Virus record (IMG/VR): IMGVR_UViG_3300029286_001586
Coordinates: 1 to 64,000 of that record
Reading direction: 5' to 3' (one strand)
Source of the DNA: a virus
Length of the DNA stretch: 64,000 nt
Both the position numbers and the translations under genes were made by a program. Positions within the stretch are counted from its first letter, which is position 1; each line of letters begins with the position of its first letter. The notes beneath the pieces are model-generated. The model ran no database searches and was not told where the DNA came from. It worked only from the letters and a program-made list of their open reading frames with translations. This document shows positions 3,244 through 36,681 of this stretch, in pieces.

Positions 3244-4518
3244 ATGAATAGACCTAAGATATTATGGATTTCCGACATCCTAGCGAAAACAGGTTTTGGG
3301 GTTGCTGCTGAAAACAATCTGAAGTATCTTCAGACTAAATATGACATAGCTGCTGCGGGTTGGAATTTCAATCCCGCAGACAAACACAGAAGACCATGGC
3401 AATGTTATTATGTTCCGAAGCAGCCAAACCCAGAACTAGGTATTACTTCCAGAAATATTTTAGAGACTCTTTATCCAATTATTGAAAAAGAAAAACCTGA
3501 CGCCATAGTAGCTTTTGCTGACCCCTGGGACTTCTTTTATGTTTCAGACGAATTCGCTGACAATGATGGTCAAGTATATTTAGGAATAAGAAAAAGATTC
3601 CCAGATATAAAAATATTTGGATATCTTACTGCTGATGCAACTCCGCTTCCAACTTATCTCAGACGCAATCTTATGTTTTATGATGCTATTGCAGTACCTA
3701 GTGAGTTCTCAAAAACAGCATTACAAATACTGCTTCCTAATACTCCAATAACAGTTATCTATCACGGCATTGACTCTGACATATTTAAAAAAATCCACCC
3801 AGAGATAGTTAATAATTGGAAAAAACAAATAGGAATTGAAGGAAAATTTGTTGTAGGATTTAATGGCAGAAATCAGTTTAGAAAAAACATACCTGGACTT
3901 TTAAGAACCTTTAAAGAATTTAGTGATAGTCACCCAGATGCAGTTCTTTTATTTCTTACTGATATTGATGCTGCTACTGCGGTGAATGATGTTAAGCGTT
4001 TAATTAATCGTATGGGTCTTACTGGTAAAGTAATTTGTCCAGAGGCGTTTGGACCGAAAGCAAATGTTGCTGATGAAAAAATGTCTTTGTATTATAACTG
4101 CATGGATGTTTATTTGACTCTTTCTTTTGCAGAAGGATTTGGATGTCCTATTCTTGAAGCTATGGCTTGCGGTGTTCCTGTTGTGACAACAGGGTATTCT
4201 GCTCCAGTTGAATTAATTGAAAAATCTGGGGGCGGAGTTCTTGTTGATGTTGCTGGTTGGGTCAATGAAAAAAGCACAGACAGAAATTTTGCGATAGCAA
4301 ATGAAACTCAGGCAGCAAACTACTTACACGCTTTATACAGCAATCCTGATTTGAGGACGAAAGTCGGAGAGAAAGCAAGGCTCTGGGCTTCTAAACAAAC
4401 ATGGTTAAAGAGCGGTAAAGAGTTCGATGCGTTCCTTGCAGAGTCGCTCAAAAAACCAAAAATAGATTTCTTTCCTATTTCGTATGGTATTGAAGTAATT
4501 GATAAGGATGTAATTTAA
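3244..4518 (+). CDS. Glycosyltransferase, GT4 (GT-B fold)
   Basis: TGFG N-terminal motif, RKN, EGFGCPILEAMACG (E-x7-E). Confidence 0.9.
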   Translation: MNRPKILWISDILAKTGFGVAAENNLKYLQTKYDIAAAGWNFNPADKHRRPWQCYYVPKQPNPELGITSRNILETLYPIIEKEKPDAIVAFADPWDFFYVSDEFADNDGQVYLGIRKRFPDIKIFGYLTADATPLPTYLRRNLMFYDAIAVPSEFSKTALQILLPNTPITVIYHGIDSDIFKKIHPEIVNNWKKQIGIEGKFVVGFNGRNQFRKNIPGLLRTFKEFSDSHPDAVLLFLTDIDAATAVNDVKRLINRMGLTGKVICPEAFGPKANVADEKMSLYYNCMDVYLTLSFAEGFGCPILEAMACGVPVVTTGYSAPVELIEKSGGGVLVDVAGWVNEKSTDRNFAIANETQAANYLHALYSNPDLRTKVGEKARLWASKQTWLKSGKEFDAFLAESLKKPKIDFFPISYGIEVIDKDVI

Positions 4519-6431
4519 TGTCACATGTCTCAATTTGCGTCCCTTATATAGACAAGATTGATATACTAAAAAACACTATTAGTTCCATAAGAAATAAGAC
4601 TGGTGATACAGCGAAGTATAAAATATTTCTCATGGATAACGGTTCAGAAAAACAAGTAGGAGCAGGTGATGGAAACTTGGTGGTTATTAATTCTCCAGAG
4701 AATCTTGGGTTTGGCAGAGCGTTAAATCTTTTAATTACAGAGGCTCTAAAAGAAAATCCAGATACACATATTTTGGTTTGTAATGATGATATAGAGATAC
4801 TTCAATTAGGATGGCTAGATAGACTTGTTGATTGTGTTGAGACCTATCCCAAAGCTGGTGTCGTAGGTCCAGTATGTCTATATCCGAATGGTACTGTTCA
4901 ACATGCAGGAGCATATATCAACAGGATTTTTACGGGGCAGCACTTTCAAGAAATTCCAAAAGAAAGAAAAGAATTTGAGTACATACCATTTGTTGTAGTG
5001 CTTCTTCATAACAATCTTGTTAAAGATTTAATTAAAGCACAGGGAAGTGTTTTTGACGACAATATTAAAAAGGCATATAGTGAGGATGTTGACGTATGTT
5101 ATAGTGCAAGGAAATATGGTTATGTTTGTGTTCTTGAACCGACGGTAAGGATTGTACATCTTGAAGGTACGTCGCAGAAAATTGGAGTTCTTGGAAATAG
5201 AGCAAATATTTCAGAACTTCAAAATACGAACAAAGAATATGTTGCGAAAAAGTGGGAAGACTATGATTCTACCGAGGATAAGAAATATAAAGTTTGTTTT
5301 GTGTCCAGGCTCGCAGGAAATTTGAGCTACCAACAAGTGCTTAAAAACATTGCCCCAAGACTAGACAAAGATAACGAATTTGATGTGTCGCTTCTTCCAG
5401 AGGAAACCGTCTATTCTCCAGAACATCTTCCTGCGGATTGGGAACTTAGAAAACTCAGACAGAAACCCTTTGATGAAAAAAGAATTTGTATCAGGTATTC
5501 AGAAGGTCAGTTTGGATATCTTGCTTATAGCAGGGATGTAATTTACACGACTCTCGAAACATGGGGAACGCATATTCCTTTTGAGTGGAAAAATAATATA
5601 AACAAATTTAAACAATGTTGGGTAACTTGTAATAGAGTGAAAGATGTGTTTCAAGCATCTGGTATTACGATACCAATTAAAGTAGTTCCGCATGGTATTG
5701 ATTTTAAACTTTGGGATTACAATGTTGAACCTTATCACAATCCTCATCTTCCAAAGTTCTTATTTTTTATGAATGACATGTATGGTTCGAGAAAGAATAT
5801 GGATATTGTTGTTAAAGCGTTCTGTGAGATTTTTAAGGACAACAAAGAAGTCGGTTTATTTATTCAGAGTTCTGGATTAGTAACTCAACTCGAACAGATT
5901 GGTTATGCAGAAGGAGTTGAAAGAAATTTAGGGACACAATACTTTAAAACAAAAGTCATAACTAGATGGCTTTCAAATAATGGATGGGATGGCAGAACTC
6001 AGATATTTGTTTTTGATGATTGGGTGTCACAGGAAACTCTTGTTAAATTGTATGCAAGAATGAGTGTTGTTATCTGTATGGGCAATGAAGGTTTTGGGCT
6101 TGTGGGTTTACAAAGCGCAGCCATGAAGAAACCACTTATACATTTGAACGAGGGCGGATTTTTAGAATACTGTCCTCCGTCTATGACATATCCCGTTGAA
6201 GTCGGTGATTATGTTCCTTCCCGTCAGATGTGGATAATGCAGCAATACATAAATGGTTTGTGGGCAGAACCTAATTACGAGAGTCTTAAAAAACAGATGC
6301 AATTTGTATATGAACAAACTTCAGCAAACGAAACTAACGCCGAATCATTATATAATTATGTCAGGGAAAATTTTACTTGGGATAAAGTAATAGAAGGAAT
6401 AAAGGAAAATATTAAATGTTTGGATTCTTAG
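4518..6431 (+). CDS. Bifunctional glycosyltransferase, GT2 plus GT4
   Basis: N-terminal DNGS, NLGF, CNDD, EDVD; C-terminal PHGID, RKN, EGFGL. Confidence 0.88.
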   Translation: MSHVSICVPYIDKIDILKNTISSIRNKTGDTAKYKIFLMDNGSEKQVGAGDGNLVVINSPENLGFGRALNLLITEALKENPDTHILVCNDDIEILQLGWLDRLVDCVETYPKAGVVGPVCLYPNGTVQHAGAYINRIFTGQHFQEIPKERKEFEYIPFVVVLLHNNLVKDLIKAQGSVFDDNIKKAYSEDVDVCYSARKYGYVCVLEPTVRIVHLEGTSQKIGVLGNRANISELQNTNKEYVAKKWEDYDSTEDKKYKVCFVSRLAGNLSYQQVLKNIAPRLDKDNEFDVSLLPEETVYSPEHLPADWELRKLRQKPFDEKRICIRYSEGQFGYLAYSRDVIYTTLETWGTHIPFEWKNNINKFKQCWVTCNRVKDVFQASGITIPIKVVPHGIDFKLWDYNVEPYHNPHLPKFLFFMNDMYGSRKNMDIVVKAFCEIFKDNKEVGLFIQSSGLVTQLEQIGYAEGVERNLGTQYFKTKVITRWLSNNGWDGRTQIFVFDDWVSQETLVKLYARMSVVICMGNEGFGLVGLQSAAMKKPLIHLNEGGFLEYCPPSMTYPVEVGDYVPSRQMWIMQQYINGLWAEPNYESLKKQMQFVYEQTSANETNAESLYNYVRENFTWDKVIEGIKENIKCLDS

Positions 6432-7072
6432 AACAGTTTAAAGAAGGAATAGAAGCATGTAGTTCTGAAATAGGATTACAGGTAATGCTATTTTCGCTGG
6501 CGGTAGCAATCCAGGCAGAGACTATTATAGAGATAGGAAGATTTAAAGGGAGTTCTACGCTTGCGCTTGCAGGAGCATTGCATTTTCTTGATACACAAAT
6601 GAAGTACGACGAAAAACATTGCGAGAGACCGTTTATAAATTATAAAAAACTGCACGAACTAAAAAATAGAAAAATATATTCGATAGACCCAGCCCCAAGA
6701 ACAGAAGCAGAACAAAAATTAGGAGCCAATGGGTTCAATGCCTATGTTGAGTTAATAAATAATCAATCGTGGAATGTGAACTTAGAAGTACAAGCCGATT
6801 TAATTCTTGTTGATGGAGACCATACACTGGCTTCTTGTGCTAAAGACACAGAAAAGTTTATAAACAACAATCTAAAAGTAGGAGGGTATTTTATTCTCCA
6901 CGATTATTATGGGTGGTTTGGAAATCATGCTGATAATAACTCGCCGATAAAAATGGTATGTGATAGACTTGTATCTATCGGTATTTTTGAACACATTCTC
7001 ATTGATACGAAGTACATGAGTTTTATGATTTTTAGAAAGAAACATGATATGGATTTTAAGGTGGGGCTATGA
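6416..7072 (+). CDS. Class I SAM-dependent methyltransferase (Methyltransf_24-like O-methyltransferase)
   Basis: EIGRFKGSS, VDGDH, LKVGG..ILHD. Confidence 0.85.
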   Translation: MFGFLEQFKEGIEACSSEIGLQVMLFSLAVAIQAETIIEIGRFKGSSTLALAGALHFLDTQMKYDEKHCERPFINYKKLHELKNRKIYSIDPAPRTEAEQKLGANGFNAYVELINNQSWNVNLEVQADLILVDGDHTLASCAKDTEKFINNNLKVGGYFILHDYYGWFGNHADNNSPIKMVCDRLVSIGIFEHILIDTKYMSFMIFRKKHDMDFKVGL

Positions 7073-8541
7073 ATACAATAGGATTTTTGTCTGTACAAAT
7101 TTTAGTTAAAGACAGCGAAGATAATATAAAACGTTGTTTGGATAGTCTTTTATGTTTGAGACAGTATATAAAAGACGTGGTTATTGTGAATGATGATTCA
7201 AAAGATAAAACCGTCGAGATAGTCAATACATATAAAGACATTTTCTGTATTGCTATTTATCACACGAAGAAAGACCATAGAGGATTTGCTGGTCTTCGTA
7301 ATGATGCCATTGGTATATGCAAAGGTGACTGGGTTCTTGTTCTTGATTCTGATGAAACAATCCATCAGGATATGTTTTGGGAAATTCTTCCTATGGTTCA
7401 GTCCGAACAAATATTAGCATATTTTTTCCCCAGAGTTTTATTGTTCCCAGATAGCGCAAATTACATAACAAACGCTTATCCTGATTATCAGATGAGATTA
7501 TTTAGGAAACTCCCAGGAGTTAGATTTACAAGAGAAGTCCATGAGTATCTTGAATTCGTCGATAAAGACGGAAAGATTTTTTCTTTGGGAATTAATCAGC
7601 CAAATACAAAGATAACTCATAAAATACATATCTACCATTTCCAGCTTCTTTCTTCAGAAGAAAAGTTAAAAGAAAAAGGACGGAGATGGATGGAGCAGTC
7701 CAAAGCAAGCAAACAAGCCGGGTTTGAGATAGTAGGGGAAGATGCCTATGTTTTTAATCAGTATCAGCATCAGTTCTCTCCGCTTCCAAACGACCTAGTA
7801 TTAGGAATGGAAGTAAAGAGAACCGAATGGGATATCTTAAATAAGATACGAGAAAAAATAGATGCAGAAGTTCAGTTCGATGAAAAAGGACAAGCAACTT
7901 CAAATATTAATACAAGAGAATATTGGAATGAGTTATTTAAAGAACACGAACTGTCTGATAGTGCGATAAATGGTCAGTTGCCAATAATTAATTTTGGATG
8001 CAAAGACGCTGCTCAGTTCTATAAAAAATTTATAGATGATTATGCGAAGATACCAGTTAAGAAGATTTTAGAAATTGGTTGCGGGACAAAAACAGAAGCA
8101 CTAGAGCTTCATAAAATGGGTTATGATATGACAGTTATCGATATATCTGATTATATGATTCAAAAGCAAAAGGAGAATTGTAATGGTCCTAAATATTTAC
8201 AAATGGATGCAAGGACTTTGGGATTCAGTGATAGTGAATTTGACTTTATTTATTCATCTGATGTATTGGAACATTTTCCTGAAACTGAAGAAACCATCAA
8301 AGAATGGTTACGTTGTCTTAAACCAGGGGGTCATATGCTCATTACAACCGTCGGACCCGACCATGAAAAGCTCGCTACGCATTGCAAACTTTTTACTAAA
8401 GAAAGCCTCACGAAAGAGTTAGGACTTGATGGAGACGGTCTTAAATATCATGTTTCTGTCATTAAATGTGGTGATTATGAAAATATGGGCAGGGGAGATA
8501 GGAATATAACCTTCTGGATTCATAAGGCAATAAATAAATGA
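7069..8541 (+). CDS. GT2 glycosyltransferase fused to a SAM methyltransferase
   Basis: DDSKDKT, LDSDE, VHE; LEIGCG, DVLEH, LKPGG. Confidence 0.88.
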   Translation: MNTIGFLSVQILVKDSEDNIKRCLDSLLCLRQYIKDVVIVNDDSKDKTVEIVNTYKDIFCIAIYHTKKDHRGFAGLRNDAIGICKGDWVLVLDSDETIHQDMFWEILPMVQSEQILAYFFPRVLLFPDSANYITNAYPDYQMRLFRKLPGVRFTREVHEYLEFVDKDGKIFSLGINQPNTKITHKIHIYHFQLLSSEEKLKEKGRRWMEQSKASKQAGFEIVGEDAYVFNQYQHQFSPLPNDLVLGMEVKRTEWDILNKIREKIDAEVQFDEKGQATSNINTREYWNELFKEHELSDSAINGQLPIINFGCKDAAQFYKKFIDDYAKIPVKKILEIGCGTKTEALELHKMGYDMTVIDISDYMIQKQKENCNGPKYLQMDARTLGFSDSEFDFIYSSDVLEHFPETEETIKEWLRCLKPGGHMLITTVGPDHEKLATHCKLFTKESLTKELGLDGDGLKYHVSVIKCGDYENMGRGDRNITFWIHKAINK

Positions 8542-9179: not shown

Positions 9180-9570
9180 AATCAAAAATATTATATCAAA
9201 ATGGAAACCTGTTCTTGGTTTGAGTGATTGGGATATAAAACATAAGCTCATAAACCAAAAACAAAACGAATTTAAAGAACAGACGGCAATCGCATATATA
9301 AAATATGATTGTCTTAGGAAAATGGCTTGTATTTTTGTAGCGAAGTCAAAAAGGGTTGATAGATGCAAACTCGAAGAAGTCGTTTTACATGAAATCCTAC
9401 ATCTAAGATATTACGGGGTAAAGGAATGTTTCGATGAGATAGTTAATAACTATGTTAGAAGTAAAAAGACAAGAAAAATATATCAGGAACAATTATCTAC
9501 AAGAATAGAAATTCTTATAAATGATACTGCAAAAATGTTGATTAGTGGAGGAAAACAAAATGGTGTGTAA
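9166..9570 (+). CDS. Zincin-like HExxH metallopeptidase-family protein
   Basis: LGLSDWDI and VVLHEILHL. Confidence 0.6.
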   Translation: MEKNKIKNIISKWKPVLGLSDWDIKHKLINQKQNEFKEQTAIAYIKYDCLRKMACIFVAKSKRVDRCKLEEVVLHEILHLRYYGVKECFDEIVNNYVRSKKTRKIYQEQLSTRIEILINDTAKMLISGGKQNGV

Positions 9571-11965
9571 AGTTTGTGGAGGAGAAAACATAAAAGAAAA
9601 CATATTTTCATGGAATACAATTCAATATGACAAATGTGAGTGTGGTATTGTATTTAAACATGATATGACTCTTGAATCTCACTACACTAATGATGATTCA
9701 TATAGAGATTATATGTTCAGAGAGGCACAAATGTATGAAGATTTTGAGAGTAAGATACTTTATCTGAAAAGAATTAAAAAATCAGGAAGTCTTCTTGATG
9801 TCGGTTGCAATTATGGATTACTTATGAATGTTGCAAAGGATTATGGATATGAAGTGAATGGAATAGAGCCTTCTCTTTCTTGTGTTAGATATGGCAAAGA
9901 GCGATTTGGATTTAATATAATTTGGGGTGTTCTTGAAGAACCCACAAAACAGAAATATGATATCATAACATTTAATCATGTTTTAGAACATACAATAGAC
10001 CCTATAAAAGTTCTGAGAGCAGCAAATCTTTCTCTTAATGAAGACGGGATAGTTCTTATTGCGTTTCCAAATTTTGGATGTGAGGAAGCGCAAAAGAATC
10101 CTACTACTTGGCCAACGCTTTGTCCTCATACGCATAATTGGCAGTTTACATTGGAAACAGCTTCGGCGGTACTAATGGCAGCAGGGTTTGATGTTATAAG
10201 CAATCCAGAACTTACAGGCAATCTTGTGTTGATTGGGAGAAAAGCACAGGTGGGGGCTTATCCTGTTGTTGATATTAAGAGACACGAAAGAGACCATGTA
10301 GATATCATTCTTCCAATATATAACGGGGATTATACAAAGACCTTTGTAAAAGAATTATATGAAACCGCAGATTATCCTTTTAAACTTTACATAATAGACG
10401 ATTGTTCTAATGATGGTATTGCTGACTATATTAAAACAGAAGTTCTTCCTAAACACAAAGAAATTGTTTATATTAGGAACGAAGAAAATCTTGGATTTTT
10501 AAAAACAGTCAATGTTGGCATTAGAGCATCGGAAAATGATTTTGTATTGATAGCAAATAACGATTTAAGGTTTCTGAGAAAAGGATGGCTTTCAACAACG
10601 GTCAATACACTCAAAAATAATAAAGATATTGGAGCGGTGGGCATAGAATACTTACATAGTGACGTTGATTTTGTTACGATGTGTTATTTTATGACGAAAA
10701 GAAGCATCTTGGATAGAATTGGATATCTCGATGAGTCTTTTGCGCCTGGAGTATTTGAAGATGTAGAATTTTGCACTCGTTTGCAACTTATGGGATATGG
10801 TTGTGTTGCAATAGACATTCCTGTTGCTCATTTAAATAATAACGGACCGCAGCAAAACATTACCAAAGAAAAACTTACCGAAATAAATAGACAGAAGTTT
10901 CTTGCTAAATATAATTTTGTTCACAGAGATTTCAAAATAGTATTTCATATGAACAATCAGCTATGGGTTGGAGGCATTGAGGAAGTTATAAAAAATCTTA
11001 TAAAATACAAAGACGAAGGATATGAAGTTATTGTTGCGTCCCCTCAAGACGGTCGTATGGCAAAAGAAATGAGAGATTATGGAGCAACTGTTTTTATTGG
11101 AAATTTCACAAAAATATACAATTTAATAAATATAATAAAACCAGATATAATTCATACGCACACTTCTGGTTTGCTCACATATGGAAATCATTTGGCTAAT
11201 TTAATAGTTCCGAAACCTATTCGAGTTGAGACAATTCATTCTCCAGGAACGAACAATGCAACCGAAGATAAATTAGATGCTCTAGTTTCGGTTAGTAATG
11301 ATACATTTTTGAGACAGAACTTTAGTAGAACAGTTGAGATATTAAATGGCGTTGATTTTGATAAGTGTAAAAGAGAAGAAATAGGGAAACCTAAAGAAAC
11401 AAATAAAATAGTAATTGGAAAAACATGCAGAATGGCTAAAGATAAAAAGGTTCTTGATTTTATTTTGGCTGCATATTATCTGACAGAAAAATATAAAAAC
11501 ACAAAATATAATTTGGAGTTTCATTTGGTCGGAGACGATAGCACAAAAATTTATAGAGACAAATGTGTATTATTTGCAAAGCAGCTTGGACTCGGAAATC
11601 TTTTCTTCTATCCAGAAACCAGAGAAACTTCTTTTATGAATGGTTGGGATATAGGCTTAGCTCCGACATGGAGCGAGGGATTTGGTATATCAACGGCAGA
11701 GATGGTTGCATTTGGTTTGCCAGTAGTGACATATAATTGTTTTGCCAATCCAGAAATAGTTTTAGACGGAATTAATGGATTTTTAGTTGATGTTGATGAT
11801 ATAAATGGTTTGGTTGAAAAAACATCCAATCTAATCGAAAATAAAGAATTGAGACTTCAGATGGGAGAAAATGGGTTATCCCACATACAAAATTTTGATG
11901 CAAGAAATATGTCGAAAGAATATTACGATTTATATAATAAACTACTAGGAGAAAAAGTTGGGTAA
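9560..11965 (+). CDS. Three-domain methyltransferase-GT2-GT4 protein
   Basis: CxxC; LDVGCNYG and HVLEH; DDCS, ANND and EDVE; GGIE and EGFGISTAE; GGAGG SD before ATG 9560. Confidence 0.88.
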   Translation: MVCKVCGGENIKENIFSWNTIQYDKCECGIVFKHDMTLESHYTNDDSYRDYMFREAQMYEDFESKILYLKRIKKSGSLLDVGCNYGLLMNVAKDYGYEVNGIEPSLSCVRYGKERFGFNIIWGVLEEPTKQKYDIITFNHVLEHTIDPIKVLRAANLSLNEDGIVLIAFPNFGCEEAQKNPTTWPTLCPHTHNWQFTLETASAVLMAAGFDVISNPELTGNLVLIGRKAQVGAYPVVDIKRHERDHVDIILPIYNGDYTKTFVKELYETADYPFKLYIIDDCSNDGIADYIKTEVLPKHKEIVYIRNEENLGFLKTVNVGIRASENDFVLIANNDLRFLRKGWLSTTVNTLKNNKDIGAVGIEYLHSDVDFVTMCYFMTKRSILDRIGYLDESFAPGVFEDVEFCTRLQLMGYGCVAIDIPVAHLNNNGPQQNITKEKLTEINRQKFLAKYNFVHRDFKIVFHMNNQLWVGGIEEVIKNLIKYKDEGYEVIVASPQDGRMAKEMRDYGATVFIGNFTKIYNLINIIKPDIIHTHTSGLLTYGNHLANLIVPKPIRVETIHSPGTNNATEDKLDALVSVSNDTFLRQNFSRTVEILNGVDFDKCKREEIGKPKETNKIVIGKTCRMAKDKKVLDFILAAYYLTEKYKNTKYNLEFHLVGDDSTKIYRDKCVLFAKQLGLGNLFFYPETRETSFMNGWDIGLAPTWSEGFGISTAEMVAFGLPVVTYNCFANPEIVLDGINGFLVDVDDINGLVEKTSNLIENKELRLQMGENGLSHIQNFDARNMSKEYYDLYNKLLGEKVG

Positions 11966-12668: not shown

Positions 12669-12670
12669 CA

Positions 12671-15274
12671 TTGGCAAAATATAAAACGAAAATTGACGCC
12701 GATTTCCTTTATCTGTTGTCGTGTTTTTATGACCCCGCTTCTTTCTTCGAGTTCTTTAATTCGCAGGAACATACAAAAGACGGCAAGCCATATGAGCTTA
12801 TGCAGCCGTTTCTTGATTACTCATATTCTCGTCTTATAAAAAATCATAGGTGCTTGGCTTCTTCTCGTAATTGCCAAAAAACAACATTGCTAGAGAACGA
12901 AACGCTCCAAGACGCTTTAACAAGAGTTGACCAGAAGACAGGATTTATTGTTCCTTCGGAAAAGCACATGATTGAGGTAGCAGAAAATCTTGTGAGAAAA
13001 ACCCAGACATATCCTCTACTTAAACTTTTCTTCAAAGATTGGTATGTTAAAAATAGATACATGCAGTTCCATACTGGTCACATGATTGAGTTCAGGATAA
13101 TGGGACATGATTATACAGGAGAAAAATCAGCAATCGCTTTACACTGTCTTGATGGGGACCAAGAAGTGTTGTTTTATGACGGAACCAAGATGAAGATAAA
13201 GGATGTTGTTGAGAATAAAGTTTCTAAGAGGGTTGTATCATATTCGCATCATTTAGGTAAAATTGAGGCAAGTAATATTGTTAATTGGTTTAAATTCAAG
13301 AATCATAAAGACGTTTCTGAAGAAGTAATTGAAATTGTTTTAGATAATAACGAAAAAATTGTTTGTACGAATGAACACATGTTTCAAACTGCAAGAACAA
13401 GCAAGACTTTTATTCCTGCAAAATATCTTTATATTAACGACAAACTATACAAAAATATTTCATTTAATTGTAAAGTAGTCGAATGGTGGAATGACAACAA
13501 AAGAACAGATGAATATATAAGAGGCTTGCTCTTAGGAGACGGAAGCATTTCTCGTCACAAATCGACGCATAATGCAAGAATTAAAGTGTGTCATTGTTCT
13601 AAACAAAAAGAATATTTGGATTTACAGAAAAACATGTTTTCTGATGTGGGTTATAGTGAGTATAATAGCATTACAGAATACAAGTCTCATGTATTTTCGG
13701 TGCAGAGTCGATGCTCAGAGAAGTTTAATAAATATCATGATGAACTGATAATCGGCGGTAAAAAGACGGTAACACAGAAATATCTTAATAAACTTACCCC
13801 GCTTTCTATTGCTGTATGGTATATGGATGATGGGAGCCTATCTGGAGATTCTTTGAGGTTAGCCACTCACGGATTTTCAAAGGAAGAAAATGATTTAATT
13901 TCTGAATATTTCAAAGATAAATGGGATATAGATAATGCAGTAATGGAAGATAAAAGAAAAAATTTGTTTTTTATCTATTTAAAAGATATTGATAAATTTT
14001 TGAAACTCATTGGTCCGTATATACCAACATGTATGCGATATAAACTTAGCAGAATTGTTTATGTTGGAATAAAATCATTAAATCGAATAAAATATGATAA
14101 GCCAGTTTATGATATAGAAGTTGAGACAAATCATAACTATTTCATTAATGGAATTCTTTGCCATAATTGCCAAAAAAATGTAGTTGACGAATCACAGAAT
14201 ATCCCAAAAGAATATTTACAGCAGTTGACCCCAGGTTCGACACAAGGTTTTGAATATTTAATAGCGGGAGTTTCAAACAACATACGAACAACCGCTTTAT
14301 GGTATGGCGTAGCAGACCCTATGTTTGTTTATCTACGCTATGCAATGTATGAGGGACCAAACTGGTCAGATGATATGGATAAGATGATGCAAGAGCAGAC
14401 TGGTGGCAAAGAAACACAGGGATGGAAGACGCTTGTTGAGGGCAGATGGGGTGAGAGAGCCTTTAATGTGTTTCCGATGAACAAGATTTGGGAAGCATCA
14501 ATGATGTTTCAAAAAAACAAACATCTATATTCAAACCAGATATTCCATGACATGACTACAAACGAACTTCTATCTAAATTGGTTCTTCCTGCGTTAGATG
14601 GAAAATTTTGCGAATATATTTTGGGAGTTGATGTGGGAGGAAATTCAAATAATTCTCCTTCTGAAATTGAAGTTTGGGGTCTTAAAATTAGGGGAGATAA
14701 GTTGGGTTGGATTCTTGTTTATAAATTGTCATTATACAACATAGGTACTGTTATTCAGTCTGAAATAGTTGATTATATAGCATCTTATTTTAATGTAAAT
14801 GGATTAGGTATTGATGCTCAAACAGTGGGTTCTGATTTATATAGAAACCTTACTGAAGGCAAAGTAATTTCGGACCCAGCCAAAGTAGAACGATATAAGA
14901 ATATATGCAAACCATTTATCATGAACTCAATGGTAGTTGTCGATAAATTATTTAACAAGCAGAAGCAAAAAGACGAAGAACTAAAACAACCTGTTAAGAT
15001 GAAAGCGACAATACTACTTCAAGAGTTGTTCAGACAAAATCTTATAGAGCTTCCTGGCGTAAAAGAGATAATGGAGTCATTTCAGGCAGAAACATGGCAG
15101 TCTAATAGGCAAAGAATAGGCGGAATGACATATATGAACGATAAGAACGAACATTTAGTAGATGCTGCTAGAATGGCTGTTATGGCTAGATGGACAATAG
15201 AGCAAGAAGGACTGCTACCACAGGAAGCAGAAGCAAGAGATATCCCAGGACCAAATATCAGGAGAATGAAATGA
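12671..15274 (+). CDS. terL: Terminase large subunit, intein-containing
   Basis: Walker A-like SRNCQKTT, Walker B NVVDE, nuclease motifs ILGVDVG, IDAQ, HLVDA; upstream of portal. Confidence 0.8.
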   Translation: MAKYKTKIDADFLYLLSCFYDPASFFEFFNSQEHTKDGKPYELMQPFLDYSYSRLIKNHRCLASSRNCQKTTLLENETLQDALTRVDQKTGFIVPSEKHMIEVAENLVRKTQTYPLLKLFFKDWYVKNRYMQFHTGHMIEFRIMGHDYTGEKSAIALHCLDGDQEVLFYDGTKMKIKDVVENKVSKRVVSYSHHLGKIEASNIVNWFKFKNHKDVSEEVIEIVLDNNEKIVCTNEHMFQTARTSKTFIPAKYLYINDKLYKNISFNCKVVEWWNDNKRTDEYIRGLLLGDGSISRHKSTHNARIKVCHCSKQKEYLDLQKNMFSDVGYSEYNSITEYKSHVFSVQSRCSEKFNKYHDELIIGGKKTVTQKYLNKLTPLSIAVWYMDDGSLSGDSLRLATHGFSKEENDLISEYFKDKWDIDNAVMEDKRKNLFFIYLKDIDKFLKLIGPYIPTCMRYKLSRIVYVGIKSLNRIKYDKPVYDIEVETNHNYFINGILCHNCQKNVVDESQNIPKEYLQQLTPGSTQGFEYLIAGVSNNIRTTALWYGVADPMFVYLRYAMYEGPNWSDDMDKMMQEQTGGKETQGWKTLVEGRWGERAFNVFPMNKIWEASMMFQKNKHLYSNQIFHDMTTNELLSKLVLPALDGKFCEYILGVDVGGNSNNSPSEIEVWGLKIRGDKLGWILVYKLSLYNIGTVIQSEIVDYIASYFNVNGLGIDAQTVGSDLYRNLTEGKVISDPAKVERYKNICKPFIMNSMVVVDKLFNKQKQKDEELKQPVKMKATILLQELFRQNLIELPGVKEIMESFQAETWQSNRQRIGGMTYMNDKNEHLVDAARMAVMARWTIEQEGLLPQEAEARDIPGPNIRRMK
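13145..14167 (+). mobile_element. Intein (341 aa) with LAGLIDADG homing endonuclease in TerL
   Basis: Begins CLDGDQ, TNEH block B, GLLLGDG and WYMDDG, ends ILCHN followed by Cys. Confidence 0.92.
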
Positions 15275-15705: not shown

Positions 15706-17319
15706 ATGACTAAAACAAATAACTTGAAACAAAATGGTCCAGGCTTCGTTCGTAAAACAAATTCTCAATATGATAAACAAATGGATGCTTTCCGAAGCTC
15801 CATAGGTAATCTATTTACTTCAAATGACCCCACGCTATCTTCACAAGGCAAAGTCGAAAAGCTCATGCAGCAAGGATATTGGGGAGATGTAATAAAATCT
15901 CTCAAAATATACGAATCCGACGCTGTTATTAAAAAACTAATAGATGAAAGCACTTACTGTGCAAACACAAAAGTAATGTTTTCATCTACTGATGATGAGA
16001 AAACCAAAGAAGTATATGAGGAATGGGCAAAACGAATAAACGAAGATGTCCCTAATGTAATTCCTGGTATTAATACTGTTGCTGAATGGATATTACTTTC
16101 TTTACTTAAAACAGGAATGGCTGTTCCTGATTTTGAATGGCAAGACATTGATATCAATGGCGAAATATATACGCTTCCAATGAAACTCAATGTTCATCCT
16201 ACCCTTGCAGTTAAATTAAAATCAAGTCCTCTTAAATTTGGTTATGAAGAAGTATGGCTTGGTTTAAATATTACTTCAGATGATTTCAAGAAAGAAACAG
16301 CAAATGCAGACCAATCATATTTAGTAAAATATGTCGAAATGGTCCCAGGAAATTCCCCTTATGGCGGAAAAGTTCTTAATGAAGTATGGCACGATAAAGC
16401 ACAAACAAAAAACACAATACTTTGTGTTAAGAAGCCCAACGCCTTTGCCCTAAAGTATAAATGGTCAGCACAAGACACGACATATTATCCTATTCCTCCT
16501 CTTAAAGCGTTGTTTGCTCCTATTGCAATGAAGCACAAGCTCCAAGAAGCGGATATGTCCTTACTTCAGAGAGTAATCAGTAGGATTATACATGTCAAAG
16601 TTGGCGATAAGGACAATCCTCCGAAACCAGACATCGTTGATAAAGACGGAAATGTGACTAAAAAAGGAACACTCACACTTTATTCAGAAATGTGGCAAGA
16701 AGGCGAAGGCACACAAATATTCACTACTGATTATACAGTGTCAATTGAAGATAAAATACCAGACTTGGAGTTAGTTCTAAATCAGGCAAAGTATATACCC
16801 TCTCTTATGGAAATAATGGGAGCTTTTGGTATCATGCAAGACCCAGACTCTAAAGTGGGGTCTGCTCCTCATGCACAACTTAATTTGACTAAATATGAGA
16901 AATATCTCGAAGACTTGCAAAAAATAGTTATCGGATATATTAAATGGTTATGCAAAGAAATAGATAAAAAGAATCCGAAGATAAAAAAACCGTCTAATAT
17001 AGTAATGAATCCCCCCTATATCGATACTGCAACACAGAAATCTCTAGCTGATTTATTTAAAATGGGAGCAGTAGATATTTATACCCTTCTTGAATCTATT
17101 GATTTGGACCCGACACAGATTAAAGCCAGGAAAGAAAAACAGCTTGGTGATAATATGACGAACGGAGAGAATGTTTGGAGTCCGCCAACATCTCTTGTTC
17201 AAATCGCAAAAGACAAAAATGGTTCTATGAAAGAAGAATTTTCTGAAGATTCGGAACCAGGACGCCCCACGAAAAAAGAAAAAACAGACGAAATGCAGTC
17301 AGAAGAAATAAAACAGTAG
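15706..17319 (+). CDS. Portal protein
   Basis: 537 aa, between TerL and head genes, helical, charged C-terminal tail. Confidence 0.75.
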   Translation: MTKTNNLKQNGPGFVRKTNSQYDKQMDAFRSSIGNLFTSNDPTLSSQGKVEKLMQQGYWGDVIKSLKIYESDAVIKKLIDESTYCANTKVMFSSTDDEKTKEVYEEWAKRINEDVPNVIPGINTVAEWILLSLLKTGMAVPDFEWQDIDINGEIYTLPMKLNVHPTLAVKLKSSPLKFGYEEVWLGLNITSDDFKKETANADQSYLVKYVEMVPGNSPYGGKVLNEVWHDKAQTKNTILCVKKPNAFALKYKWSAQDTTYYPIPPLKALFAPIAMKHKLQEADMSLLQRVISRIIHVKVGDKDNPPKPDIVDKDGNVTKKGTLTLYSEMWQEGEGTQIFTTDYTVSIEDKIPDLELVLNQAKYIPSLMEIMGAFGIMQDPDSKVGSAPHAQLNLTKYEKYLEDLQKIVIGYIKWLCKEIDKKNPKIKKPSNIVMNPPYIDTATQKSLADLFKMGAVDIYTLLESIDLDPTQIKARKEKQLGDNMTNGENVWSPPTSLVQIAKDKNGSMKEEFSEDSEPGRPTKKEKTDEMQSEEIKQ

Positions 17320-17329: not shown

Positions 17330-17749
17330 ATGCCAGGATATCCGAAGAATTTTTTAGCTAATTGGGTTGCACAGGCTTCACCAAAAGCCATGATTGACCA
17401 ACTGGAAGACAATATAGAAGTTGTTGTTGATGAACTCGCTTCTGGTCTGCTGGGTTACGAACCTGATATAACAACGAATAGTTTAAGTGGAAGCATGATA
17501 CTCAATGCTACTATTGGTTCATCAAAAATTGTCGTAGCAGATTGGGCGACGAAACAGAACGCAATAGCTCTCAGTTCATTGTCTGGTGTTTATTTGGCAG
17601 ATGGAAGCGTTCTTGCAAGAAAAACAGATTTTTTGACTGTTGGCGTGTCTGGGTTATCTTTAGGAAAATTCGGTCCATTAAGGGACGCTGATGGAGTAAA
17701 TGTTTATTTATATATTAGTGGAGGGGCAGTACAAACAAGTAGGACATAA
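17330..17749 (+). CDS. Putative virion protein, SG-rich
   Basis: Head module; 5 Ser-Gly dipeptides in 139 aa. Confidence 0.55.
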   Translation: MPGYPKNFLANWVAQASPKAMIDQLEDNIEVVVDELASGLLGYEPDITTNSLSGSMILNATIGSSKIVVADWATKQNAIALSSLSGVYLADGSVLARKTDFLTVGVSGLSLGKFGPLRDADGVNVYLYISGGAVQTSRT

Positions 17750-25552: not shown

Positions 25553-25567
25553 CAAAGGAGAAATTAA

Positions 25568-27169
25568 ATGGCGAATCTGACATACACTGACTCAATCACG
25601 CTTCCTTCCGATAGATACCAAGTTTATGCTGCAACAAAATTTGGTAGGTTTGTAAATATAGAGGCTTTGCAGAGCGTTGGTATTAATCCAACAAGACCGA
25701 ATGAAGTCAAAGACCAAATAGGAGATGTAAGTCACAGAGGAACGAGCCTTAAACAGCCCATAGTCGCTGTACCACTTAATTCTCTTTTAGTTGATGCAAC
25801 AATGCCACAGCTTTTAAGCGATAAAATGGGATGGGTGAATATAACACCCGCAGACCTGAATGGAACAACGCTTTCTGGTACGTCAAAAGTATATGCTAAA
25901 GTAGTTGCTCCTATTCTTAATTCTGGAGTATATGAAATTAGGGCGATAGCACAGGACAAAGTAAGTATTGCTGTTTCTGGTGGTGCAGTTAAAATTGCAT
26001 CTCTTATCGTAGGTGCTGGCACTGACGCAAAACAAAGTAGCGTCGGAGTTCTTGATAATGGAATTGAAGTCGCTATAACTGATTTGTCTGGACTTCTGAG
26101 AGCAGGAGATACGGCTAAATTCGGAGTGGCTACGATAAACCATTGGGACGCAGAAGTTGATTTTAAACTTGCAAGCGTTGACATGCGGGTAGTTGTGAAA
26201 GACGGTATTGGAAACATACACAAAACTTTCTATCTTCCCGATATGGCTGCTATGAATCTAAATCAGAGCTTTACTGCTGACGGTGATGCGACTGAAGCTG
26301 TTGATTTTGAGACCGAGATATTCCAGCAATATGACGGATATCTTCTAAAGAGACAGGTTGTAGTCGGAACTGCAATGGCTGCTGCGAAACAGATAACATT
26401 TGATAATATATTTCCTAGTGAGTCTGGTATTGTAACTCCACAAGTTCACAAAACAGGTTCTCCTTATGCAGGAAAATATTTTACGAGAATAACAAAGACT
26501 TCAAGTGCTAATGTTGATACGGTTTATACCGAGCAGTCTGGGCTTCAGGCAACTGCTGCTGCAACTGTAAAAGTAGATGCTCCTACAAAGAAACTTGATT
26601 TCGATGCTCTTGCTGTTGGTGACAGGATTGAACTTACATTCTTTTCTATGAAGTCGGGTTCAGCCACAGAAACATTCAATGAAACATTTCTTGATAATCC
26701 TATTTCAGTACCAGGTGATTATATCCCTGTATCAATAGGAGCCAATGCTTATGACAGGGCAACTGCACTTTCAATAAGTACGGCGTTTAAGAGAGAAAGA
26801 AAACCGTATCTGGGTCAGACTGATGTTAAATATTCTCTTGGAAAAACTCCAGACATAACTGGTTCTGTTTCGGCGAGCGATGAAGACCTAGCACTTATAA
26901 GACTGCTTTCTAAAGGTTCTACGACCGACGGTGGCGTTGAATACTATGTAAAAGAAACAGGCGATTACACGAACATGAGCGGAGTAAATCTCCAGCTTGT
27001 TGCCAATGTAAAAAGTCCTGCCGATAATACAACGACTGTTGTAAAGTACACCATACCTACGATAGTAGTAACTGGATTTGACCAGAGTATAAGCGTTAGT
27101 GCTGACACGACTAGGAATTTCAACTGGATAAATAAATACGGAACCATGGACATCGACCGTAATCTTTGA
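25568..27169 (+). CDS. Major tail (tube) protein, large, possibly with duplicated tube domains
   Basis: 533 aa, strong SD, followed by terminator and chaperone genes. Confidence 0.65.
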   Translation: MANLTYTDSITLPSDRYQVYAATKFGRFVNIEALQSVGINPTRPNEVKDQIGDVSHRGTSLKQPIVAVPLNSLLVDATMPQLLSDKMGWVNITPADLNGTTLSGTSKVYAKVVAPILNSGVYEIRAIAQDKVSIAVSGGAVKIASLIVGAGTDAKQSSVGVLDNGIEVAITDLSGLLRAGDTAKFGVATINHWDAEVDFKLASVDMRVVVKDGIGNIHKTFYLPDMAAMNLNQSFTADGDATEAVDFETEIFQQYDGYLLKRQVVVGTAMAAAKQITFDNIFPSESGIVTPQVHKTGSPYAGKYFTRITKTSSANVDTVYTEQSGLQATAAATVKVDAPTKKLDFDALAVGDRIELTFFSMKSGSATETFNETFLDNPISVPGDYIPVSIGANAYDRATALSISTAFKRERKPYLGQTDVKYSLGKTPDITGSVSASDEDLALIRLLSKGSTTDGGVEYYVKETGDYTNMSGVNLQLVANVKSPADNTTTVVKYTIPTIVVTGFDQSISVSADTTRNFNWINKYGTMDIDRNL

Positions 27170-27183
27170 TGATATAGCTTCTT

Positions 27184-27207: not shown

Positions 27208-27266
27208 TATTGACCCCTCTTTAGGAACAGGTTGGACACGGAAAAGGACAGGAAAGGATTATTTAT

Positions 27267-27692: not shown

Positions 27693-27707
27693 GAAAAGGA
27701 GAAGAAA

Positions 27708-29274: not shown

Positions 29275-29276
29275 AA

Positions 29277-32369: not shown

Positions 32370-32372
32370 ACT

Positions 32373-33239
32373 ATGGCAGACATAATAAGACTTAGAAATC
32401 CTTTAGATACAAGTAAATACATAGACATTAATAACTCGACTTTAAGTGGGTGTTTTCTTGGGGTGGAACAATGTGATTTTGGAAAGTTCACTGGTTATCG
32501 AAAAGCAATACACGAATTCCCAGGACAGGATATTGCTAAGTATCAGAAGATAGGGCTTAATCCAAGAGACGGAAAGATAAACTTTTATCTCATGGCTCAA
32601 AATTCCGCAACTACTTATAGAACTGACCTACACAACGCTTTAAATGATTTATATAATTACATGTTCATTCAAGATGTTCAATTATATCTTAATCCCCCAA
32701 ATAGATACGTGGTCGTGAATTGTGTTGGTGCAAATGTAACTGATGACGTTAAAGACGATAGTGTATTGAATATTGAAACTAATTTTATTGCAGTTGACCC
32801 ATTTTCATATGAGGACTCTCTTACAGTGCAGTCTTCTTATATGGGGAGTGTGTCGGGAAAGAACCAATCTTTTCATGTTTCTGGTATGTTATATGTTGAC
32901 CCGATAATTAAATGGAGTAATTATGGTGGAGGACTTGCAAGTGGTTTCTATCGCCAGGAAAATTTCATGATTTACAACGACACTAACGGGACATATTATG
33001 AATTCAATAGCCAGACCCCCCTTGTAAGCGGTTGGTATCTTGAAATAGATTGCACTAATGCAACTGTGATAAGCAATAATATAGCCGATTCATTAACAGA
33101 TATCAATAAAATTGGTTATACAAATAGTCCGTCATTCATGCGTCTTGAAGGCAATAGGTCTAATAATTTGAGAGTTATCGATTCATTACAGAATAGTGGA
33201 AAACTTGAAATTACATATAGGAATAGGTGGTTTGTATAA
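32373..33239 (+). CDS. Distal tail protein (Dit-like)
   Basis: F.A.DPF, LEIDC...V, ends ITYRNRW; follows TMP. Confidence 0.75.
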   Translation: MADIIRLRNPLDTSKYIDINNSTLSGCFLGVEQCDFGKFTGYRKAIHEFPGQDIAKYQKIGLNPRDGKINFYLMAQNSATTYRTDLHNALNDLYNYMFIQDVQLYLNPPNRYVVVNCVGANVTDDVKDDSVLNIETNFIAVDPFSYEDSLTVQSSYMGSVSGKNQSFHVSGMLYVDPIIKWSNYGGGLASGFYRQENFMIYNDTNGTYYEFNSQTPLVSGWYLEIDCTNATVISNNIADSLTDINKIGYTNSPSFMRLEGNRSNNLRVIDSLQNSGKLEITYRNRWFV

Positions 33240-34475
33240 ATGCTTGATTTAAGCAAAATAACAGTACATATTTTTAAGAACTTACTTCTTACTGAAATAT
33301 TTACAACATTAGTTTCTGTTGAATGGACGCTTACTAAAGGTAATGAGGCGGGAACATTCAAGGTTGTATTAAATAAATCATCAAACAATATTGAAAACAT
33401 TCATTATAATGATGAAATAAAAATTTATTATGATAACTCGCTTAAATTCGGGGGTAGAATACAAACCAAAGACATAGATGACGATAATGATACCATTACA
33501 ATAGGAGGATATTCATACACATTTGAATTATTGAATAAGCAAGTAAACTGGAAATATACAAATGAATATGCACATAAAATAGTCGAGTCTCTTGTGGACT
33601 TGCATAACAGTGACGGTGAAATAAGTTATGTGTCAGGATTAGGAGTTGATACTTTTAGTGTATTTATAGATGAAGTTCTTTTTCAGCAAGACATGCTCAG
33701 TAATGCAGTTCAAAAAATGGCAGATGTAACAAATGCTTCTTATTGGGTAGATGCTAATAAAAAATTATATTTCAAAAAAGACGAATATGTTAGTGGTGAT
33801 ATTACAAACATGTACATGAAGAATGTTAATGTTTCTAATATGAGGGTTACCAAAGATTCGTCTACAATAAAAAATAGAGGATTTCTTTTCGGAGGGGCTT
33901 ATTCTGGTCAGGCAGTTCAGGTAGTTGAAACCATACAAAACTCGAATTCTGTTGATTTATTTGGTCCCAGAGATTTTTGTATATATGATACATCGGTAAC
34001 TACCAGCGGGTATGCCCAATATAAATTAATATCCGAAATAACAAAATATTCGGACCCTAAAGTGTACGGAAGTTTTGATGTTCCTGGTGGTGATATAAAT
34101 CTGAATTATGACAGTTATATAAATCTTAAAAATTTCGGCAATGAAATCGATGATATATATCTTACTAAATCAGTCGGATATAAAATCGATTTAAAGGGAG
34201 CTACTACAAGCATTAATTTTGAAAGCAGAGTCCCGAATATTGAAAAAATTACAAAAGAACTAGATGAGCGAATATCACGGCTTGAAAAATCGCAGATAAC
34301 AGCGAATTTTATATTTAATATTTTGGATAGATTTGGATTAAGCGATTTTAACCCAGGCAATCAACCAGAGAATATTTGTTTGTATGATAGCGGAGTATTT
34401 GATAATCAAGTCTTTTGTTATGAACCATATTTGTTTTTGTACAATTCCGATACATTAGAATATTGGATTAATTAG
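33240..34475 (+). CDS. Baseplate hub/Tal-like protein
   Basis: FGGRI, YWVDANKKLYF, IKNR patterns; follows Dit. Confidence 0.7.
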   Translation: MLDLSKITVHIFKNLLLTEIFTTLVSVEWTLTKGNEAGTFKVVLNKSSNNIENIHYNDEIKIYYDNSLKFGGRIQTKDIDDDNDTITIGGYSYTFELLNKQVNWKYTNEYAHKIVESLVDLHNSDGEISYVSGLGVDTFSVFIDEVLFQQDMLSNAVQKMADVTNASYWVDANKKLYFKKDEYVSGDITNMYMKNVNVSNMRVTKDSSTIKNRGFLFGGAYSGQAVQVVETIQNSNSVDLFGPRDFCIYDTSVTTSGYAQYKLISEITKYSDPKVYGSFDVPGGDINLNYDSYINLKNFGNEIDDIYLTKSVGYKIDLKGATTSINFESRVPNIEKITKELDERISRLEKSQITANFIFNILDRFGLSDFNPGNQPENICLYDSGVFDNQVFCYEPYLFLYNSDTLEYWIN

Positions 34476-34484
34476 GAGAAATAA

Positions 34485-35209: not shown

Positions 35210-35218
35210 GAGAGAAAT

Positions 35219-35662: not shown

Positions 35663-36681
35663 TGGCTACTTATGTAAATCTTATAACATCAACGATGCAA
35701 CCGATACAACCCGTATCGAGTTCTGATATGAAAAATAATTTTTTGCAAATAAAATCTGCTCTTGTTGATGGAACTTTGGATTTAAATACAAAATCGGTAA
35801 CAATAAACGGAACTAATACTACTGTATTATCTAACGAAGTAACTGGTGGAGGACTCAGATTAAAAACTGATAGTGCATGTACAGGCGGATTTGAATTACA
35901 GACATATAATGCAGGACCAGGATATACAAACAAATTAACACTTTCTAATGATGGAGATTTAAACATTCTTTCATCTGCTGCGGTATCTGCATTTTCTGTT
36001 ACAAACGCAACAAGGGCTGTTTCTACTGGAACACTGTCTTTGACTGGACCAAGTGTTGATAGTCTTGGTGGGAATATATTTTCTGGGTCTTCATCAGGGG
36101 CATTATCAATAACTGCTGGTGCAACTAATCAAGGCGGAAGAATAGAACTTTATGGCGGAACTCATGCAACACTTCCAGGTCAAATCCTTATTAAAACAGG
36201 AACAACTGGAGGAGCAACTACCGCAATCACAATAGCGAATACAGGAGTAGTAACCTTTGCTCAACCAATCGTAGCAACAATTACTACGGCAGCGCAAACA
36301 AACATAACATCTGTTGGAACTTTAGTGTCCCTTACTGTCTCAGGAGCAGTAACAGCAGGGACTTCTTCTACTGGCGTTATGTGGAAAGTATTAAATATTG
36401 GGGATTGGGATATGGTAGCAAGTGATAATTGTGCAGTTGCTCACGGATTAGGAGATAGTTTTAAAAAGATTGTGAGTGTTTTTGCAGTAATTAGAACAGA
36501 TAATGATGCTGCTTATTATAATTTGTCTTCGTATATTGGCGGAGTAGCTATGGGAGGAGTTTATTCGTTTTCTAATACAAATATTAATTTGGCAAGGGAA
36601 ACGGGAGGAATTTTTAATCATACGGATTTTAATGCAACTTCTTTCAATAGAGGATTTGTTTATGTCGCTTATACAGCATAG
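35662..36681 (+). CDS. Tail fibre/receptor-binding protein
   Basis: T/G/S-rich; TTAAQTNITSVGTL repeat unit; C-terminal IGDWDM...AHGL...NRG domain. Confidence 0.7.
   Translation: MATYVNLITSTMQPIQPVSSSDMKNNFLQIKSALVDGTLDLNTKSVTINGTNTTVLSNEVTGGGLRLKTDSACTGGFELQTYNAGPGYTNKLTLSNDGDLNILSSAAVSAFSVTNATRAVSTGTLSLTGPSVDSLGGNIFSGSSSGALSITAGATNQGGRIELYGGTHATLPGQILIKTGTTGGATTAITIANTGVVTFAQPIVATITTAAQTNITSVGTLVSLTVSGAVTAGTSSTGVMWKVLNIGDWDMVASDNCAVAHGLGDSFKKIVSVFAVIRTDNDAAYYNLSSYIGGVAMGGVYSFSNTNINLARETGGIFNHTDFNATSFNRGFVYVAYTA

Follow-up and report, generated by a model that had tools for sequence, protein, structure and literature searches.

A candidate virion glycosylation cassette in an uncultured phage, and a Ser-Gly surplus that is mainly structural

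We analysed a stretch of 64,000 nucleotides from the virus record IMGVR_UViG_3300029286_001586 (positions 1 to 64,000, hereafter the window), and found that it carries, directly upstream of its terminase genes, an 8.7-kb cassette of seven open reading frames (ORFs; 3244-11965, plus strand), in which six genes encode three GT4 and three GT2 glycosyltransferase (GT) domains and four S-adenosylmethionine-dependent methyltransferase (MTase) domains. The most likely role of this cassette, to which we give about an even chance, is the attachment of a methylated glycan to virion proteins; a virion-protein target is suggested by the late-operon location, the apparent solubility of the enzymes, the lack of export or lipid-carrier genes and the co-inheritance with morphogenesis genes. 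The surplus of Ser-Gly (SG) dipeptides in the virion proteins, which the initial annotation had read as the acceptor sites of the cassette, is mainly a structural feature of beta-rich virion proteins and not a diagnostic sequon. Of the earlier view that this phage builds a methylated oligosaccharide on its virion proteins, we retain the cassette as real, late-operon and most likely directed at virion proteins, and give up the SG sites.

The cassette and its enzymes

The record from which the window takes the first 64 kb is a single contig of 74,052 bp from an uncultured phage; CheckV estimates it to be 53% complete, and the GC content is ~35%. A plus-strand block from ~1.9 kb to 38.8 kb holds the glycan cassette, the terminase, head, neck and tail genes and an amidase endolysin. 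Relatives were retrieved from metagenomes and IMG/VR with a profile of the portal protein and its four nearest homologues; wider portal alignments proved too divergent to give a larger unbiased sample. The relatives are referred to by locus number, among them L024, a 101-kb IMG/VR contig. Proteins of the window are named by their start coordinate. The cassette and the adjoining packaging genes are as follows.

3244..4518, plus strand: GT4 glycosyltransferase of 424 amino acids (Pfam Glycos_transf_1, E 1.6e-17), with a 31% full-length orthologue heading the L024 cassette and no membrane-span-like segment
4518..6431, plus strand: GT2-GT4 fusion of 637 amino acids, with GT2 at residues 5-134 and a sub-cut-off GT4 match at 497-551; full-length orthologue in L024 (33% over 634 amino acids)
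6416..7072, plus strand: MTase, Methyltransf_24 (Pfam E 8.7e-11), without a PDB relative by sequence
7069..8541, plus strand: GT2-MTase fusion of 490 amino acids (Pfam GT2 at 8-117, Methyltransf_11 at 334-425), with a GT2 orthologue in L024
8538..9179, plus strand: MTase, Methyltransf_23 (Pfam E 3.5e-16), with a homologue in L002
9166..9570, plus strand: small ORF of 134 amino acids with an HExxH motif and no Pfam or PHROG match
9545..11965, plus strand: MTase-GT2-GT4 triple fusion of 806 amino acids (Pfam; Methyltransf_23), with 57-59% homologues directly upstream of TerS in L002 and L017
11958..12668, plus strand: TerS-like gene, assigned by position, upstream of TerL in all relatives and without a Pfam match
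12671..15274, plus strand: putative large terminase (TerL) with a LAGLIDADG intein, assigned by position and conservation; Intein_splicing (168-499) and LAGLIDADG_2 (283-438) are the sole Pfam matches

The domain count of the initial annotation is exact by Pfam, and five of the six GT domains lie above the curated cut-offs; the exception is the GT4 part of the 4518 protein, just below its cut-off, and in the L024 orthologue of this protein both the GT2 and the GT4 domain exceed theirs. Neighbouring genes of the cassette share 1-26 nt at every junction, the last GT gene runs 8 nt into the TerS-like gene and only 2 nt separate the latter from TerL, which bears out the earlier description of the cassette as tightly coupled and on the same strand as the terminase and morphogenesis genes. 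We found no convincing plus-strand terminator between 3244 and 15650. The slot of the small 9166 ORF is taken by an M15 peptidase in L024 (L024:4050-4508), and L002 has no space for such a gene, because its neighbours overlap each other. The 9545 triple fusion is split into separate GT2 and GT4 genes in L024; a search of 5.8 billion proteins gave three close homologues of it, whereas 50,697 deposited phage genomes contained no comparable protein and gave three marginal matches.

The cassette enzymes look soluble, because their strongest 19-residue hydrophobic windows on the Kyte-Doolittle scale do not exceed 1.67, with the top one being the SAM-binding strand of an MTase, and nothing in them resembles a membrane span. 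Neither in the window cassette nor in the 17 kb that the cassette occupies in L024 did we find a flippase, polymerase, ABC transporter, ligase or initiating phosphoglycosyl transferase. Upon searching the PDB by sequence, we observe that the best solved glycosyltransferase relative of the 7069 GT2 domain is Listeria GmaR (PDB 22ao; E 2.6e-11, residues 6-170 against 10-165), and that the GT4 domains resemble PglA, BshA, MshA, PimA and TarM; none of these matches defines the acceptor. By Pfam, the GT families of the cassette are GT2 and GT4, with no GT14/Branch-type domain, and the 7069 protein has no TPR or other substrate-recognition domain.

Conservation of the cassette among relatives

Homologues of the 9545 protein lie directly upstream of TerS in L002/L003 (57% portal identity), in L017 and L004 (67%) and in L024 (35%). 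The cassette of L024 spans ~17 kb and consists of GT4, GT2-GT4, an anaerobic-type NrdD with inteins, thioredoxin, three GT2 genes, an MTase, a UGM-like flavoprotein, RmlD, RmlC, an MTase, the M15 peptidase, GT2 and GT4, followed by TerS, with glycan genes on both sides of the NrdD/thioredoxin insert. Four of its components have orthologous counterparts in the window, over the full length or over a domain, at 30-33% identity, and because these values are similar to those of the portal (35%) and the major capsid protein (MCP; 33%), the cassette appears to be ancient and co-inherited with the morphogenesis genes. The presence of RmlC and RmlD probably indicates a 6-deoxyhexose or rhamnose among the sugars of that relative.

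A second clade, comprising L009/L023, L013 and L014/L015, has 36-37% portal identity to the window and 36-40% to L024 and lacks the cassette at this locus. Between TerS and TerL its members carry NrdD, a radical-SAM activase, dUTPase, Cpn10-like genes and homing endonucleases, with a DNA methylase in one member, and a divergent minus-strand gene lies upstream of TerS. No GT was found in the 10 kb upstream of the portal in these relatives, which are contig fragments of at most 25 kb, so that the absence of GTs covers 15-17 kb of each.

Some further observations concern the gene content of these loci. The anaerobic ribonucleotide reductase NrdD of L024 (L052:3156-7952, minus strand), in the middle of the glycan cassette, is a 1598-aa ORF with two intein-splicing stretches and LAGLIDADG domains; NrdD of L013 (L013:2648-5338) is likewise intein-interrupted, and NrdD/NrdG lie between TerS and TerL in the cassette-less clade. 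Phage NrdD in the relatives suggests anaerobic hosts. Additionally, a GT4 gene lies in the virion module of each of the unrelated IMG/VR contigs L028, L042 and L034, at a distance of 5-9 kb on the downstream side of the portal match; in L028 three GT2 matches, two of them above the Pfam cut-off, lie 4-15 kb upstream of it. GT genes within morphogenesis modules seem to be common in environmental phages.

Ser-Gly dipeptides in the virion module

The virion genes that enter the following comparisons are listed below. The stopper, tube, cement and Dit labels are tentative, as the matches behind them are weak.

15706..17319, plus strand: putative portal, by position and size, with no SG, no Pfam match and 85 homologues; it served as anchor for finding relatives
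17330..17749, plus strand: post-portal SG-rich protein (5 SG in 139 amino acids), a candidate acceptor whose SG contexts resemble the 21288 motifs
18934..19317, plus strand: cement/decoration-like protein with 4 SG (Pfam Phage_cement and XM1_gp53, below cut-offs)
19337..20230, plus strand: putative MCP with 2 SG, by position, with homologues in all relatives
20786..21256, plus strand: neck/stopper-like protein with 5 SG; AlphaFold2 (AF2) model with a mean predicted local distance difference test score (pLDDT) of 54 and weak Foldseek matches to phage neck proteins (E ~3e-3)
21288..22721, plus strand: SG-centred repeat protein, fibre-like, with internal repeats (19 SG in 477 amino acids), a candidate acceptor
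25568..27169, plus strand: putative tail tube with 8 SG, from an ESM Atlas lead to Phage_tube_2 clusters
32373..33239, plus strand: Dit-like distal tail protein with 6 SG and 1 GS (Pfam SPP1_Dit, 23.7 bits, just below cut-off)
33240..34475, plus strand: putative tail hub protein with 5 SG, by position after Dit, with a very weak Sipho_Gp37 match (E 0.0065)

The SG counts made by hand in the initial annotation are exact, both for the proteins named as rich (17330, 5 in 139 residues; cement, 4 in 127; stopper, 5 in 156; 21288, 19 in 477; 23001, 7 in 356; 24068, 4 in 324; major tail protein, 8 in 533; Dit, 6 in 288; hub, 5 in 411) and for those named as poor (none in the portal and the 17753 protein, 4 in 1030 in the tape measure, 2 in 297 in the MCP), as are the counts of the reverse dipeptide (GS 0 against SG 5 in the stopper, 1 against 6 in Dit). 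We calculated expected dipeptide counts from each protein's own composition. Across the 23 ORFs of the virion module, SG occurs 78 times against 38.8 expected, an observed/expected ratio (O/E) of 2.01 (z 6.3) that ranks first of all dipeptides; without the 21288 protein the count is 59 against 33.2 (O/E 1.78), still the first rank. GS occurs 31 times against 38.8 expected (O/E 0.80), and in the non-structural ORFs the O/E is 1.10 for SG and 1.07 for GS. The SG excess, as stated initially, is not explained by composition, which the within-protein expectation rejects as its cause; a nucleotide-level cause can be rejected by reasoning, as in non-structural genes of the same genome SG, GS and expectation are about equal. 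The preference noted earlier for a hydrophobic residue (LIVMF) before Ser is likewise confirmed, at 42 of the 78 sites against 21.9 expected.

Some of these counts depend on one another, because many of the SGs of the 21288 protein, which supplies 19 of the 78, sit in repeats: at least 10 of the 19 fall in two internal motifs, namely seven SG-x-x-G-x-x-P units ~21-23 residues apart and three W.D.F..SGS.L units. The repeat is kept, with variable copy number, in four database homologues. The AF2 model of this protein is uninformative (pLDDT 34), and the ESM Atlas gave no match for it.

The Ser-Gly excess in phages without the cassette

Upon examining a background set of virion modules downstream of the portal (16 IMG/VR loci and SPP1; 166 ORFs, 46,578 amino acids), we observe that SG has a pooled O/E of 1.41 and ranks first of 384 dipeptides, with GS at 0.96. 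Among the annotated coding sequences of model phages without virion glycosylation genes, SG O/E is 1.68 in lambda (GS 0.91), 1.14 in HK97, 1.04 in SPP1 and 0.97 in T7, and O/E for SG preceded by a hydrophobic residue (hydrophobic-SG) is 2.17 in lambda. The window values, with and without the repeat protein, are the upper end of this generic distribution. When model phages and relatives are partitioned by protein class, SG O/E is 0.63 in portals and 0.84 in tape measures, whereas it is 1.77 in tail tubes and 1.66 in MCPs; the contrast between SG-poor inner and SG-rich outer proteins, previously offered as a sign of glycosylation, is therefore generic across these phages and probably reflects helical versus beta-rich folds.

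Five orthologous proteins (cement, MCP, stopper, the 25046 family and the tube) were compared between phages with and without the cassette, with four of the five in L009, where the tube gene is cut by the contig end.

Window, cassette present: SG O/E 2.79, hydrophobic-SG O/E 5.27
L024, cassette present: SG O/E 1.93, hydrophobic-SG O/E 3.96
L014, no cassette at the locus: SG O/E 2.03, hydrophobic-SG O/E 3.78
L009, no cassette at the locus: SG O/E 1.86, hydrophobic-SG O/E 3.82

The SG sites had been expected to be absent in homologues from phages without GTs. Instead, the excess in the cassette-less relatives (contig fragments, as stated above) equals that of the cassette-bearing L024, and in the stopper, MCP and tube individual SG positions are kept across these phages at 25-35% identity. 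Four of the five stopper positions are kept in L009 and two in L014, both of which lack the cassette; three of the eight tube positions are kept in L014 and four in L024; and one SG-bearing loop of the MCP is kept in all relatives. The cement positions are common to L004, L024 and L006 and mostly absent in L009, L013 and L014. Relatives without SG at a given position have AG, GG or DG there. In the stopper model, poor as it is, four of the five SGs lie in or beside loops, three of them right after a beta strand. Because the positions are conserved and the substitutions are typical of tight turns, SG appears to be a structural turn motif, probably one in which a tight turn comes after the end of a strand.

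The expected co-occurrence of SG enrichment with GT cassettes across related phages is seen for whole modules and disappears in the five orthologous proteins. The whole-module hydrophobic-SG O/E is 3.8 in the window, 4.0 in L004, 2.7 in L002 and 6.5 in L024, against at most 2.84 in 24 other phages; the higher whole-module SG of the cassette phages is due to extra proteins, largely repeat proteins, and not to the shared virion proteins.

That hydrophobic-Ser-Gly is nonetheless a true O-glycosylation sequon, with the cassette decorating Ser across head, neck and tail, is in our judgement improbable. Such a sequon would account for the first rank of SG beside a depleted GS in the window, for the hydrophobic preference at position -1, which is absent in the pooled controls, for the whole-module separation of the four cassette phages, for a tendency of records with any GT2 or GT4 to higher SG O/E among 11 larger records (one-sided rank test, p ~0.012), and for the fact that two distinct repeat proteins in cassette phages are both SG-centred. 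It fits poorly with the matching excess and conserved positions in cassette-less orthologues, with the surplus found in 17 other modules and in lambda, which lacks such enzymes, with the generic contrast between protein classes and with the turn-like substitutions; moreover, the samples are non-independent, with three of the four cassette phages in a single clade. The acceptor sites initially proposed across head, neck and tail thus rest on an excess that is nonspecific and shared by cassette-less relatives. A more specific version, to which we also assign little probability, holds that a GmaR-like initiating GT2 would read hydrophobic-SG and that the cassette would extend and O-methylate a deoxyhexose-containing oligosaccharide on the 21288/17330 repeats and possibly on other virion turns, with the motif in cassette-less relatives being a relic or served by GTs elsewhere. 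If this were true, phage virion glycosylation would have its first defined sequon.

Separately, a 21.8-copy hexamer repeat of CGACCC lies at 39909-40039, where a minus-strand ORF (39903-40070) could encode a 55-aa peptide of Ser-(Gly/Arg/Trp) dipeptide repeats; the other frames would give GV/EV, PR, TP or DP repeats. If the sequon idea were true, this putative peptide would be a concentrated SG acceptor.

Candidate acceptors that track the cassette

Each of the four cassette phages has an extra SG-rich gene between the portal gene and the protease/scaffold homologue; three cassette-less relatives have no such gene, and in them the protease homologue directly follows the portal. The product has 139 amino acids in the window (17330, 5 SG), 118 in L004 (4 SG) and 208 in L002 (4 SG), whereas L024 has two proteins here, one of 105 amino acids and one of 746, the larger with a ConA-like lectin domain and with 27 SG in its own repeat. 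Because their presence co-varies with the cassette, the 17330 and 21288 proteins are suggested as the best acceptor candidates, if the cassette has specific acceptors at all.

Possible targets of the cassette

Under the favoured reading, the cassette would build a short O-methylated oligosaccharide stepwise on one or a few phage structural proteins, and this assembly would take place in the cytoplasm, during virion assembly, by soluble-looking enzymes. The cassette, translationally coupled to the terminase, would have been inherited with the morphogenesis module since before the lineages diverged to ~35% portal identity. Several points weigh against it. Both the glycan and the acceptor are predictions from gene content, and further genes outside a record estimated to be 53% complete could alter this view. 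No Ser/Thr-rich tract, of the type glycosylated in mycobacteriophages, was found in the virion ORFs, nor any C-terminal extension, the MCP and tube aligning to their ends with cassette-less homologues. The cassette-less relatives, as contig fragments, could carry GTs elsewhere. That the post-portal gene and the cassette vary together may come from one joint loss and so be effectively n = 1, because L024 stands slightly closer to the cassette-less clade than to the window. Finally, the apparent solubility is compatible with an envelope target, as peripheral GT4 and MTase enzymes without membrane spans build lipid-linked O-polysaccharides.

This last point leads to the possibility that the cassette acts late on another glycoconjugate, either a lipid-linked host polysaccharide at the inner membrane face or a soluble methylated glycan, which we consider unlikely. 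GT4/GT2-MTase fusions without membrane spans are typical of such pathways, an example being WbdA and WbdD of Escherichia coli O9a, O-antigen GT and MTase enzymes without spans that work in ABC-transporter-dependent assembly with terminal methylation. The PDB relatives of the GT4 domains use lipid-linked or small-molecule acceptors, and one 9545 homologue is named 'glycosyltransferase involved in cell wall biosynthesis' by JGI. Set against this are the coupling to terminase and head genes, kept over deep divergence, and the lack of an initiating phosphoglycosyl transferase, transporter, flippase or ligase noted above, although host partners could supply these; unlike the WbdA/WbdD-like systems, neither the window nor the L024 cassette has a Wzm/Wzt transporter. 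Seroconversion of the host is unlikely, as no integrase or other sign of lysogeny was found among the ORFs scanned. A further alternative, hypermodification of phage DNA by the GTs, for example as glycosylated hydroxymethylated bases that protect against restriction, is in our view very improbable. DNA modification is the classical role of phage GTs, a diversity of DNA glycans has been described (Pyle 2024, as cited in PMC12619734), and there is a weak nucleoside 2-deoxyribosyltransferase-like match at 56136-56735. The record, which may be incomplete, has no thymidylate-synthase-like hydroxymethylase, however, and for want of such a gene DNA glycosylation was rejected as the principal explanation; additionally, no base-modification pathway was found among the replication-module genes scanned, and six GT and four MTase domains in a late packaging operon are unlike known DNA-glycosylation modules.

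Comparison with known glycosylation systems

To our knowledge, phage-encoded virion glycosylation has been demonstrated experimentally in mycobacteriophages only. The examples are Che8, Corndog and Myrna (Freeman et al. 2023, Cell Host Microbe, as summarised in PMC12619734). In that summary, the GTs are presumed to modify, in the cytoplasm, structural proteins of the phage that encodes them, which resembles the role suggested here, and the glycans sit on C-terminal regions of capsid and tail-tube subunits, unlike in the window, where neither extension nor Ser/Thr tract was found. The window cassette, known from its genes, is also far larger, multidomain-fused and directly upstream of the terminase, and no deposited phage genome is detectably related to it in sequence.

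Chlorovirus PBCV-1 offers a likeness in enzyme architecture, as its A064R (GT-GT-MTase), A061L and A111/114R are soluble multidomain enzymes of capsid glycosylation (PMC9614988). Both systems combine two GT domains and an MTase in a soluble polypeptide with stand-alone MTases, and A064R-like architecture recurs in the window in the GT2-MTase (7069), MTase-GT2-GT4 (9545) and GT2-GT4 (4518) proteins. PBCV-1 assembles a methylated glycan that contains rhamnose on a virion protein, independently of endoplasmic reticulum or Golgi, and RmlC and RmlD occur in L024. In contrast to the window, however, PBCV-1 is a eukaryotic giant virus with N-linked glycans and early-expressed genes, and its domain order and GT families differ from the GT2/GT4 arrangement. 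We found no homology to A064R or A111/114R: no A064R chain appeared in PDB searches of four cassette GT proteins, in a library assumed to include the A064R-D1 structure listed in PMC9614988, and the sole chlorovirus match was a weak one of the 4518 protein to B736L (E 9e-4).

Listeria monocytogenes GmaR modifies flagellin, on Ser/Thr of a self-assembling structural protein, in the cytoplasm. Its GT-A catalytic domain is similar to the 7069 GT2 over ~165 residues; the similarity is limited to the generic GT-A core, however, and the 7069 protein lacks a TPR. GmaR is cited as a bifunctional O-GlcNAc transferase (Shen et al. 2006, in the reference list of PMC9638930). The analogy drawn initially with animal proteoglycan xylosylation extends to the dipeptide only and does not hold: the animal enzymes form a lumenal system of GT14 type, absent from the cassette. 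Animal Ser-Gly xylosylation sites are flanked by acidic residues, whereas position -1 in the window is hydrophobic.

Genome context

The minus-strand block of the window contains replication and repair genes, among them RecA, a DnaB-type helicase, a PD-(D/E)XK nuclease and RtcB. The RtcB RNA ligase (62210-63436, minus strand) and a calcineurin-like phosphoesterase (58943-59497, minus strand) may form a tRNA-repair module. In L002 and L017 the TerL homologues are intein-free, at ~527 amino acids. GenBank phages include no close relative by DNA or by portal protein, and a host clue is lacking because no portal relative was found in GTDB genomes. IMG/VR scans with the single portal, the single 21288 protein or a 21288 alignment returned nothing, and the portal alignment alone gave loci. 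Near each end of the contig (window 257-300; genome 73853-73900) lies a short palindromic motif, CGCTATATATAGCG and then GTATGTTTAT; no exact terminal overlap of at least 12 nt was found, so that the contig is not demonstrated to be circular or complete.

Implications

The surplus of SG over GS and the pattern of SG-poor portals and tape measures beside SG-rich tubes and capsids are phage background, and dipeptide counts alone are no evidence of a sequon. The 17330 and 21288 proteins are concrete candidate substrates that can be tested without culturing the phage. If the cassette does act on the virion, an ancient GT/MTase assembly line of ten domains would extend virion glycosylation to low-GC aquatic phages and to another enzyme architecture.

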